Shown here: in pieces, positions 1-8,000 of the stretch
Numbering within the stretch: the first letter of the stretch is position 1
How the letters are laid out: each line of letters begins with the position of its first letter
Source of the DNA: Hormiphora californensis
Lineage: Eukaryota > Animalia > Ctenophora
Length of the DNA stretch: 64,000 nucleotides
Assembly (NCBI GenBank): GCA_020137815.1
Contig: CM035357.1
Location: forward strand, 186,001 to 250,000
Direction: 5' to 3'
Notes under the pieces: model-generated
Told to the model about the DNA's origin: nothing
What the model saw: the letters and a program-made list of their open reading frames with translations, nothing else
The model's database searches: none
Made by a program: the position numbers and the translations under genes

Positions 1-3000
1 CAAGAGTAGCAACAGCAGCCCCCGCCCCTACCTGTTTTCTAGTGTCGCAACAGCAGCCCCCGCCCCTACCTGTTTTCAAGAGTAGCAACAGCAGCCCCCG
101 CCCCTACCTGTTTTCAAGAGTAGCAACAGCAGCCCCCGCCCCTACCTGTTTTCTAGTGTGGCAACAGCAGCCCCCGCTCTACCTGTTTTCTAGTGTGGCA
201 ACAGCAGCCCCCGCCCTACCTGTTTTCTAGTGTGGCAACAGCAGCCCCCGCCCCTACCTGTTTTCAAGAGTAGCAACAGCAGCCCCCGCCCCTACCTGTT
301 TTCTAGTGTAGCAACAGCAGCCCCCGCCCCTACCTGTTTTCTAGTGTGGCAACAGCAGCCCCCGCCCCTACCTGTTTTCTAGTGTGGCAACAGCAGCCCC
401 CGCCCTACCTGTTTTCAAGAGTAGCAACAGCAGCCCCCGCCCTACCTGTTTTCTAGTGTGGCAACAGCAGCCCCCGCCCCTACCTGTTTTCTAGTGTGGC
501 AACAGCAGCCCCCGCCCCTACCTGTTTTCTAGTGTGGCAACAGCAGCCCCCGCCCCTACCTGTTTTCTAGTGTAGCAACAGCAGCCCCCGCCCCTACCTG
601 TTTTCTAGTGTGCAACAGCAGCCCCCGCCCCTACCTGTTTTCAAGAGTAGCAACAGCAGCCCCCGCCCCTACCTGTTTTCTAGTGTAGCAACAGCAGCCC
701 CCGCCCCTACCTGTTTTCTAGTGTAGCAACAGCAGCCCCCGCCCCTACCTGTTTTCAAGAGTAGCAACAGCAGCCCCCGCCCCTACCTGTTTTCTAGTGT
801 GGCAACAGCAGCCCCCACCCCTACCTGTTTTCTAGTGTAGCAACAGCAGCCCCCGCCCCTACCTGTTTTCTAGTGTCGCAACAGCAGCCCCCGCCCCTAC
901 CTGTTTTCTAGTGTGGCAACAGCAGCCCCCGCCCCTACCTGTTTTCTAGTGTGGCAACAGCAGCCCCCGCCCCTACCTGTTTTCAAGAGTAGCAACAGCA
1001 GCCCCCGCCCCTACCTGTTTTCAAGAGTAGCAACAGCAGCCCCCGCCCCTACCTGTTTTCTAGTGTAGCAACAGCAGCCCCCGCCCCTACCTGTTTTCAA
1101 GAGTAGCAACAGCAGCCCCCGCCCCTACCTGTTTTCTAGTGTAGCAACAGCAGCCCCCGCCCCTACCTGTTTTCTAGTGTAGCAACAGCAGCCCCCGCCC
1201 CTACCTGTTTTCTAGTGTAGCAACAGCAGCCCCCGCCCCTACCTGTTTTCTAGTGTTGCAACAGCAGCCCCCGCCCCTACCTGTTTTCAGTAGTAGCAAC
1301 AGCAGCCCCCGCCCCTACCTGTTTTCTAGTGTGCAACAGCAGCCCCCGCCCCTACCTGTTTTCTAGTGTAGCAACAGCAGCCCCCGCCCCTACCTGTTTT
1401 CTAGAGTAGCAACAGCAGCCCCCGCCCCTACCTGTTTTCTAGTGTCGCAACAGCAGCCCCCGCCCCTACCTGTTTTCTAGTGTAGCAACAGCAGCCCCCG
1501 CCCCTACCTGTTTTCTAGTGTAGCAACAGCAGCCCCCGCCCCTACCTGTTTTCTAGTGTGCAACAGCACCCCCCCCCCCCTACCTGTTTTAGTGTAGCAA
1601 CAGAGCCCCCCGCCCACCTTTTATGTGCAACAGCGCCCCCCCTCCTTTTTCTAGAACAACAGCACCCCCGCCCCTCTTTTCTAGTGTGGAACCAGCCCCC
1701 GCCCCACCTGTTTCAAGTAGCAACAGCAGCCCCCCCCCACCTTTTATAGGTGCAACAGCAGCCCCCACCCCTACTGTTTAGGGCAACACAGCCCCCCCCC
1801 TACTGTTTTCAAGAGTAGCAACAGCAGCCCCCCCCCTACCTGTTTTCAAGAGTAGCAACAGCAGCCCCCCCCCCCTGTTTTCTAGTGTCGCAACAGCGCC
1901 CCCCCCTCCCCGTTTTAAGGTGGCAACAGCGCCCCCCCCTCCCTTTTTTTAGGTGAAAAACACCCCCCGCCCCTTTACGTTTTCTAGTGTGCAAAAGCAG
2001 CCCCCCCCCCTCCGTTTTTGGGGCAACAGCACCCCCCCCGCCCCTACCTGTTTTCTAGTGTGGCAACAGCAGCCCCCGCCCTACCTGTTTCTTAGTGTGG
2101 CAACACTCAGCCCCCGCCCCTACCTGTTTTCTAGTGGTGTGGCGAAACAGCAGCCCCCGCCCTACCTGTTGTCTTCTAGTGTCGCAACAGAAGGCCCCCG
2201 CCTACATGTTTCAAGAGTAGCAACAGCAGCCCCCGCCCATACCTTGTTTCAAGAGGTAGCAACAGGCAGCCCCCGCCCCTACCTGTTTTCTAGATGTAGG
2301 CAACAAGCAGCCGCCCATACCCCCCTACCTGTTTTCTAGTGTGGCAACAGCAGCCCCCGCCCCCCCTACCTGTTTTCTAGTGTAGCAACAGCAGCCCCCG
2401 CCCCTACCTGTTTTCAAGTGTGGCAACAGCAGCCCCCGCCCCTACCTGTTTTCTAGTGTAGCAACAGCAGCCCCCGCCCCTACCTGTTTTCTAGTGTGGC
2501 AACAGCAGCCCCCGCCCCTACCTGTTTTCAAGAGTAGCAACAGCAGCCCCCGCCCCTACCTGTTTTCTAGTGTGGCAACAGCAGCCCCCACCCCTACCTG
2601 TTTTCTAGTGTAGCAACAGCAGCCCCCGCCCCTACCTGTTTTCAAGAGTAGCAACAGCAGCCCCCGCCCCTACCTGTTTTCAAGAGTAGCAACAGCAGCC
2701 CCCGCCCCTACCTGTTTTCTAGTGTCGCAACAGCAGCCCCCGCCCCTACCTGTTTTCTAGTGTGGCAACAGCAGCCCCCGCCCCTACCTGTTTTCTAGTG
2801 TGGCAACAGCAGCCCCCGCCCCTACCTGTTTTCTAGTGTGGCAACAGCAGCCCCCGCCCCTACCTGTTTTCTAGTGTAGCAACAGCAGCCCCCGCCCCTA
2901 CCTGTTTTCAAGAGTAGCAACAGCAGCCCCCGCCCCTACCTGTTTTCTAGTGTGGCAACAGCAGCCCCCGCCCCTACCTGTTTTCTAGTGTAGCAACAGC

Positions 3001-5052: not shown

Positions 5053-8000
5053 TGCCATGATTCATGTCTGCTATTGGTTCCCATCTGTTGGTCTCATGAC
5101 TGAACATCTCACATGTCTTGTGTCGCGACTGTTTGTCTCTTCCACCTAGTGATGTAAGATTATTTGATGGTACACCAAGGTCCAACAAGTTAAAATCAAA
5201 ACTGGAATTTAAGAGATGGACAAATGACCTACCGATAGCGTAAAGTTTGTCACCAATCACTGCGGCCCCTGCCCCGTTCCGTGCTCGTGTCATTCTGGGC
5301 AGATTAGTCCAGATATCAGTAACAGGATCATACATCTCAACTGTGTCTAGAAACTCATTTCCATCGTGCCCGCCTGACAAGGAGAGAATTGGGGGAGATA
5401 GTTAAGCGGGAGGGGCATGGCAAGATTAAGGAAAGTATAAAAGTTTTGGGGATGAGAAAGGGAGGAGTGAGTGTGGAAGTCGAGACTATCACGGATCATG
5501 AAGCACCTACCTACTGCGTATATTTTCCCGTTCATTAGTGCAATACCATGACTGCCTCGTTTAGTTAGCATATCTGCACACGGGTACCACTCGTTTTTCT
5601 CTACATCATAGCACTCAACACTGGGGTGGGGGGACATATTGGTTAACATTGGTTAACATTGGGGTTAACATTGGAACATATTGGTTAACGATACAGGAAA
5701 ATAAAGTGGACTGTTACACCTATGCAAGGCTTATTACCTTTTTAAGAAGATCCTCTTTGAATCAATTCCACCACACACAAACAGTGCATTAGGTCGAATT
5801 CTCTTTCTGGGGTTCTGGTCCCCACTAGCCTCCCTAGTACCGTGTAACACAACATACTGTCTTTTGTGTGGCATCAGGTGATTGTTTTTAACCTGTAACA
5901 GAGAACTGTCAGTAGGGCATGTCTCATGATAACTGCAGGCAGCAGTCAAACTTCAAAGAGCAGAGTTGTAGTAGAGTCGATAACTACATCGACCTCTCCC
6001 AATTGTTCCAGTTTTTGTGCCGGTCCAGAATTGGACTCAGCTGCTCCAATAAACACTGCGCGCGCAGAACTAGTGCTGACACTATAAAACCGCTACACTT
6101 TAATAAGATGGAGAGGTGCGCGCGGTACAGAACAACATTTGGGTGTGTATCAGCTAGGAAGAGCTTCGTTGAGTCGAGAGAGGGGTATATGATAATGGGT
6201 GCAACACACACACTGGCTCTCAGTGGTCAGCTGCTGCGGACTAAGGCTACCTCGCTCTTATAGAACACACTCCCTTGTTCATTTTGCTCTCTCTCTCTAT
6301 ACCCTTATTTTCTAGTCACGCACAATAACACTTGTCTTTAATCTCTTGCTCTCTCAAAAAAGCACCATTTTCTCTGTCCCCATTCCTGAGCAAAGCAGGT
6401 GTATGATTCGGAGTTGAGAAAGAGAGCATGACGTCAATCTCAGCAGAACGCGAAATAAAGAGATGGAAAAGCAGAGGACGAATCTTTATTCTTGTATTGA
6501 GTAGCGAAAGTATGTCTATATTTAACTCCAAAAGAGAAAGAAGGAGAGTGAGAGAGAGAGAGAGAGAGAGAGAGAGAGAGAGAGAGAGAGAGAGAGAGAG
6601 AGAGAGAGAGAAAGAGAGTGAGAGAGAGAGAGTGCGAGAGAGAGAGAGAGAGAGAGAGAGAGAGAGAGAAAGAGAAAGATAAGCGTTGTTTGTTCATCGT
6701 TATGCGGCAGTAGTAACATAATACATCACGAGAAAGGCTTTGTTATTTCAAGAGGGAGGAATATTGGTGGGGGCCGTAGACTGAATAAATATTTGCATGA
6801 TAAGATTAAAGAGAAATATTAAGAAAGATACGGACATTATCCTTTACTCCCCCTCATATCATACCAAGATTCCCCAAGGTTATTATAAAACGTATGTGTG
6901 GTTTTGGTTACTACTTGACGACTAGTTGCTTGGGGTGCAGTAACTGAGTAAGAAGTGTTACAAGTATAATATAAGAAGTACAGAAGTGAATCGTTATCAG
7001 TAGAACTTGCGATATATAATACTCTGAGAATATACGCGTGATAGAACCTATAACAAGGTGAGCCTACTTTTAGCAAATCGAACATTTCCATTTTCCAAGA
7101 TCCAGCCAAATCTACTGTAGATTTTGTGTAACACCCGGCCGAATTATTTATCATACGGGGCGCGGTGAGAGAGGGTCGAGTAAGGCAAATAACCTAGAAG
7201 GGTGGTATCAATTACTCACGTTATGTAAGATCCTGTTGCACTCCGTATCACCCATTATCAGTGGCTCCGTCTCGATCTGCTCAATCAGTTCCTCGACAGA
7301 CAAGAGATCTAGTCGGATGAGGCTGAGAAGTTCTGAAGTGTGAGATGCTCTGGTCTTTACATCTTGTTTTATCCATCTTACCATGCCTGCAGAGAGGGAG
7401 ATAGTGTGGAGAGAGGTGAGAGAGATAGGACAGAGTAGGACAGAGGGAGAGTTTCCCCTATCTCTGTCTCCCGGGACTCGGGAGGGAGGTAGGAAAGAGT
7501 AGAAAATGTAGAATATAGGATAGGAGAGAGGAGAGTTACACACACTCCCCCAATACATTGCGCCGTAACCGCATTATTACAAAATATACCAACCATTGAA
7601 AGAAGTTACATTGAAGGAAGTTACCCTTCACACATTCCCTAATCCCTCAACATGAGGGGTAACCGCGTTATACCCACCATTGAAAGAAGTTATCTCTGAG
7701 TCCACATTTAGTTCATCTGAAGATAGTATGTTCTTCATCTTCTGAAAAGGAATGTCCAGGAATTCCTCAGACTGGTAAACCTCCCTGAAGTTCCTCGAAA
7801 CATACCTCAACACGCTCGTTATTGTGTCCTGCAGGAATGTTTGGTATTATTCTGATGTTTATGCCCGGCTAGTACATTGCAAACCCGGGCATCTAGCTTT
7901 AGTTCTATTTTTACTAGGACTATTTTTACTACAACGATTACTGCAGCAGCTCTCCCTATCTCAAGAGATCTATTGTAAGGGAGAGGTAAACCCAGAGAGA

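Follow-up and report, generated by a model that had tools for sequence, protein, structure and literature searches.

The stretch of DNA analysed here (the window) comprises 64,000 nucleotides of the ctenophore Hormiphora californensis (assembly GCA_020137815.1, contig CM035357.1, positions 186,001 to 250,000 of the forward strand), and opens with a long tandem array of exon-end copies lying in an intron of a reverse-strand gene. According to its sequence, this host is a predicted BTB-BACK-Kelch (KLHL-like) gene, whose BTB, BACK and Kelch exons succeed one another in that order between 15692 and 5019, the 3' exons lying beyond the window; Kelch_1 and BACK were found by Pfam, and residues 1-470 of protein P0002, which carries PF00651, align in order. 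The BTB and BACK exons span 7211-15692 (tblastn pieces 7387-7211, 7834-7676, ~8560-8473, 15468-15019 and 15692-15546), and are followed by two more exons within 5511-5901, whose outer limits are approximate, by an exon at 5233-5373 (GHDGNEF...LYAIG), and by the Kelch exon at 5145-5019 (GRDKQ...ATLENR), which ends in ...ENR at a phase-2 donor. The best named match among 24 proteins came from the ctenophore Bolinopsis microptera and is kelch-like; a eukaryote protein model (P0004), whose identifier is probably in the style of Pleurobrachia gene models, is almost identical to the upstream exons of the window.

Repeat detection on the window returned a tandem array at 6-5052 with a period of 38 and 134.6 copies, and tiling resolved it into 134 units, all in the orientation of the gene. 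Unit 0 (5015-5052) is the exon's own copy, formed by the last 34 exon bases and the first donor GTAG (5018-5015), and the other 133 are intronic (1-5014), together with one partial copy at the open window edge; as the array extends past that edge, its length is at least 5.0 kb and at least 134 units. Thus, the initial annotation was right in describing an array of about 5 kb whose 38-bp unit is the tail of a Kelch exon plus GTAG, with a GT donor and an in-frame TAG; it had assigned ten codons to the unit, and the actual coverage in the exon register is 12 codons, with 34 of the 38 bases being exonic. The units of the array, which are of minisatellite length, follow one another head to tail, and the first of them straddles a real exon-intron boundary, as indicated by the Pfam Kelch exon, by the homologs, and by the same donor place in a ctenophore ortholog (L015) and in organism B. 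For scoring, 107 of the 133 intronic units were used, excluding 23 from an error-rich section (units 71-93, 1542-2365) that is probably unpolished assembly, one adjoining unit, and two with a one-base gap. Among the scored units, 92 were of a 38-bp form bearing an extra G, with loss of the exon register, and 15 of a 37-bp form; AG-GT was retained at 105 of the 107 junctions, the other two being AG-GC. No higher-order block structure was found, with no run of five or more units being shared, as in shuffled arrays. The array also appears in the short-read contigs of runs X1 and X5, two samples of organism A, with summed contig depths, which are not copy numbers, of 16,779 (X1) and 326,081 (X5) over the array versus 76-91 and 484 over the exon bins; run X11 gave only an unrelated piece of 41 bases. 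The array is therefore real, and these contigs speak against the assembly artefact considered at the outset.

The array is also younger than its host intron. Homologs run on past the exon end with K-I-Y-A-V-G-G and hold the motif only once, and the repeat motif is single-copy in P0002 and P0003. Of the 31 loci from a metagenome scan, one (L015) is the ctenophore ortholog; the other 30, distant Kelch proteins of 25-34% identity, were not used. The translation of L015 is identical to the Bolinopsis protein, its exon has the same phase-2 end point, and no repeat was found in the roughly 80 bases after the exon end. In organism B (run X7), two contigs track the exon to 5016 and then continue for 166 and 149 letters off the repeat. 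Since an intron without an array occupies the same place in two other ctenophores (L015 and organism B), the gain of this intron by tandem duplication was rejected. Other observations concern the neighbouring sequence: the 87-nt intron at 5146-5232 has no in-frame stop, and one X1 contig holds 25 extra letters in this region, so that the assembly may be a haplotype mosaic there; the end of another exon of the same gene plus its donor (original 7669-7692) is copied once, over 24 bp, at 7585-7608 in the intron that follows that exon, on the gene's strand; and a dispersed repeat of very high depth, common to organisms A and B, lies at ~5969-6018.

Although the array is likely untranslated DNA, its variants tend to be silent in the reading frame of the exon. 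Among the distinct changes, 10 of 14 were silent versus an expected share of 0.30-0.40 (P 0.0015-0.017 across nine transition/CpG settings), or 10 of 15 when the odd unit 100 was counted as a replacement (P 0.003-0.03), and the silent share was 3 of 14 in each of the other two sense frames and 2, 8 and 3 of 14 in the antisense frames. Counted as letter instances against the column majority in 106 units, 121 were silent and 18 were replacements; the exon-frame reading is unchanged in 88 of the 107 units and the protein altered in 19. The four transversions, silent in every case (P 0.005), are common array-wide, each being present in 26-53 of the 107 units, whereas the four replacements are all transitions and rarer. 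Transitions were silent in six of ten cases (P 0.11), or in four of eight without the two junction letters (P 0.32), which resembles neutrality. The exon's own GCG-ACA-CTA type is carried by 9 of the 107 units. Further, the units bearing replacements are concentrated near the exon (16 of the first 50 versus 2 of the remaining 57, P 1e-4), and so are rare silent variants (12 of the first 50 versus 2 of the remaining 57). Every silent and replacement variant listed by the initial annotation is present in the array, its replacement list having overlooked GCG>ACG; what it took for a C/T change at the G-run junction is GCG>GTG, an Ala>Val CpG transition found in 12 of the 107 units; and its claim that the variation is almost all synonymous holds as a silent bias, weaker than stated.

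The live exon varies in a similar manner. In X1 and X5, exon haplotypes have GGT for Gly at 5054 and AGA for Arg at 5051 on the gene strand, where the window reads GGC AGG, and the letters of these two silent polymorphisms recur at the matching places of the array, with AGA in 5 of the 107 units and GGC in 2; each of the five units with AGA has the 37-bp length that keeps the exon register. Among 40 of the 143 difference rows, 19 of 20 exonic differences were silent, and in two X1 haplotype pieces 16 of 174 and 15 of 214 bases are unlike those of the window, a divergence sufficient to supply units differing at 3 of 12 codons. The exon alleles of the species are thus densely different and almost always silently so. 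Published heterozygosity is high for a cydippid ctenophore, at 3.2% in Hormiphora (PMC8527503).

A second locus in the window provides an independent test, whose outcome was not selected beforehand. The gene at 53953-54487 (reverse strand) encodes a BART domain (PF11527), and four intronic copies of the acceptor plus the first 17 codons of its BART-domain exon lie at 54079-54436 on the same strand, the real copy being at 54003-53953. These copies show six distinct differences from the real exon, every one of them silent (P 2e-5 to 7e-4), and form a patchwork of two types. The nearest one is in frame into the real exon, and splicing at its acceptor would add 42 residues; the other three meet stops, where G-run lengths are perhaps unreliable. 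Other repeats of the window (23856-24063, 42592-42712, 60414-60511 and 61046-61120) were not used as tests, because the copying of constrained coding sequence was established for none of them.

On these findings, the array is best read as an exon-boundary minisatellite of the kind named 'mirage' in amphioxus, and we propose, with a probability of roughly 0.6, that out-of-register recombination in a very polymorphic animal has seeded it from exon alleles filtered at the protein level. The string GG(C/T)AG(A/G)G is common to the Gly-Arg codons and the donor, and this microhomology, as judged from the letters, could explain the unit; exchange through microhomology had been suggested by the initial annotation, the match being this string and not the G-run alone. 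The first 37-bp copy would have come from slippage of the Gly-Arg codons against the look-alike donor, and the 38-bp form that is now dominant from a slip in the G-run. The exon copy of one chromosome would then pair with an intronic copy on the partner chromosome, or be copied into a neighbour, and allele letters entering the array in this way would already have passed selection on the protein. Turnover would spread the captured letters, and mutations born in the array would be unfiltered and remain rarer. Under this proposal, the copies look protein-constrained because they were seeded from selected exon alleles. Both the exchange and its direction are what we infer, as is splicing, which by analogy with the human F7 gene and amphioxus would use the first donor, leaving the array as a tolerated by-product that probably has no function. 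GC-rich minisatellites exchange units between alleles; a literature search on inter-allelic minisatellite conversion found nothing.

Several points weigh against allele capture. Four common array variants (GCC, GCT, ACT and CTT) were seen in no exon allele, although there is no read-level view of alleles inside the unit, and the X5 exon contig, which has 17 other letters of which 16 are listed, leaves at most one unlisted difference and so is not of the GCT-ACT-CTT type. X1 probably derives, judging by its contigs, from the window's own individual, because four of the eight listed X1 pieces match without difference or gap. GGT also spells the donor's own letters, which makes it weak support, and AGA is a single event, possibly a new mutation. 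Thus, the comparison with exon polymorphisms proposed by the initial annotation, and its idea that the array archives population alleles of the exon, stand in part: AGA and GGC/GGT occur both in the array and in exon alleles, and for the commonest silent variants no match was seen. In addition, only 14 distinct changes underlie the silent count, the locus was chosen post hoc for its silent pattern out of many windows, and when the two junction codons are omitted 8 of 12 changes are silent, with a P of 0.01-0.06; the CpG-aware codon tabulation therefore gave a silent excess in the exon frame whose P rises to 0.06 under strong CpG weighting.

The last three of these points equally favour an unlikely alternative, namely that neutral drift, mutation bias and chance brought a few founders, silent by luck, to high frequency; the transitions by themselves also fit neutrality. 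However, the four transversions are silent without exception, one fourfold site has three of its four letters changed, and the BART locus, with its unselected outcome, gave six silent differences out of six.

It is likewise improbable that the live exon end is overwritten by array copies so frequently that selection purges replacements from the array. In favour of such back-flow, the common variants are silent, the units of the exon's own GCG-ACA-CTA type would allow exchange in either direction, and a very large population might expose a weak load. Nevertheless, back-flow predicts fewer replacements near the exon, and the opposite was found, with rare silent variants being likewise enriched there; furthermore, most units are out of the exon register by their extra G. 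For these reasons, selection on the array itself is disfavoured, and with it the suggestion in the initial annotation that any copy could become the exon end. The wider proposal that exon-boundary arrays of highly polymorphic animals act as two-way reservoirs, which store old exon haplotypes, return them to the exon, and are purged by back-flow, is doubtful; if true, untranslated intron DNA would be under selection for a protein that it never encodes.

Hidden translation, in which 33-nt micro-exons would be spliced between TAG and the next GT and held by ordinary purifying selection, is very improbable. The 37-bp unit less GTAG does leave 11 in-frame codons, and the nearest BART copy is in frame into its exon; yet the 37-bp form accounts for few units and the 38-bp form carries the same variants, the sequence before TAG is rich in purines, in contrast to the acceptors at 7387 and 5374, which are rich in pyrimidines, the motif is single in P0002 and P0003, and three of the four BART copies run into stops. 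A translated tandem exon or micro-exon array was accordingly rejected as a candidate, given 92 of 107 units out of frame, the in-frame TAG, and the single motif of the homologs, all of which are features read from sequence. There is a very slight chance that the variants come from a paralog elsewhere in the genome and not from alleles, for although the window holds partial duplicates of the 5' part of the Kelch gene, 72-88% alike, these show no Kelch exons within it, and AGA is an allele of this very exon. As little credit can be given to an artefactual array or variant mixture: units 71-93 are rich in errors, the one-G-short junction is listed in X5 (13 contigs) and not in X1, so that some 37-bp units may be homopolymer errors, and the variant letters were not observed at the level of reads, but the depth of the array contigs far exceeds that of the exon, two haplotypes cannot yield four letters at one site, and errors would not be expected to prefer third positions.

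The remainder of the window displays further duplications and mobile elements. A partial second copy of the 5' part of the Kelch gene and an inverted copy of its 7322-11202 region, found at 32920-32244 (reverse strand) and ~25279-29123, constitute a rearranged segmental duplication at a distance of about 17 kb, its copies showing the likeness of 72-88% given above. Duplicated genes with pacifastin-type cysteine modules (PF05375) lie on the forward strand at 11290-14153 and 29218-31401; the first is likely a nested intronic gene, because it is flanked by exons of the Kelch gene, which run on the other strand. An ankyrin gene is also duplicated (23322-24414 and 35044-35857, forward strand), with BTB-like exons downstream, and its first copy holds a 40-bp repeat in five copies (23856-24063) that starts beside a probable donor. 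Similarly, a 40-bp repeat at 60414-60511 copies the last codons and the stop of an open reading frame (ORF) resembling alpha/beta-hydrolases into the 3' flank. Retroelement copies at 45442-52292, which we take to be Penelope-like, encode a reverse transcriptase with a GIY-YIG-like end and show 99% inverted repeats that are possibly a chimeric-read artefact. Two long ORFs of 494 and 1095 amino acids lie at 18249-22669 (reverse strand), a pair that we presume typical of a long interspersed nuclear element (LINE). The section 43600-45200 is of low complexity and error-rich, and 25176-25275 is a 100-base N gap.

The class of exon-boundary repeats to which the array belongs is already published. 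In amphioxus, mirages are tandem repeats over exon-intron boundaries in which the splice signal is repeated, with units of 10-160 bp and several cases per genome, including Adh3, the globins BflGb6 and BflGb9, and PGBD5, and unequal crossing-over was proposed for them (PMC3087553, PMC3902484). According to the available text of these sources, the repeats resemble those described here in that the unit lies across the boundary and both 5' and 3' boundaries are affected in each system, and differ in size and host, the globin and PGBD5 mirages having 2-7 units versus at least 134 in this ctenophore. The word 'synonymous' is absent from that text, in which unit variants are not tied to exon alleles. 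Intron 7 of human F7 contains a 37-bp variable number of tandem repeats (VNTR) of 5-9 copies, whose first monomer spans the exon-intron boundary and is followed by downstream pseudo-donors, and similar repeats of about 10-26 copies are given for 6-16, CBS, lamin B2 and PDGF (PMC1557585). As far as the accessible part of this source goes, the likeness extends to the boundary-spanning first monomer, the pseudo-donors and a near-identical unit length; the F7 unit, however, has only 4 exon bases versus 34 of 38 here, a proportion that made a codon test possible, and use of the first donor, demonstrated in F7, would apply here by analogy. As in the model of Rogers, cited in PMC3087553, in which introns are gained by tandem duplication of an AG/GT site, an AG-GT segment has been tandemly duplicated, whereas no intron was gained here. 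What differs at this locus is therefore the size of the array, the phylum, and the silent, allele-like variation; neither silent bias nor allele capture in such repeats was found in a literature search that did not include the original Adh3 paper or the supplementary alignments of PMC3087553, and whose relevant results were the papers on F7, the globins and PGBD5.

The array is thus an unusually long case that extends the class to ctenophores. If allele capture is true, even DNA that escapes translation altogether can acquire an excess of silent changes, which would call for caution in gene finders and in tests that treat such an excess as proof of coding. Mostly exonic units would then record exchange between exon and intron and between chromosomes, giving a handle on the turnover of mirages.

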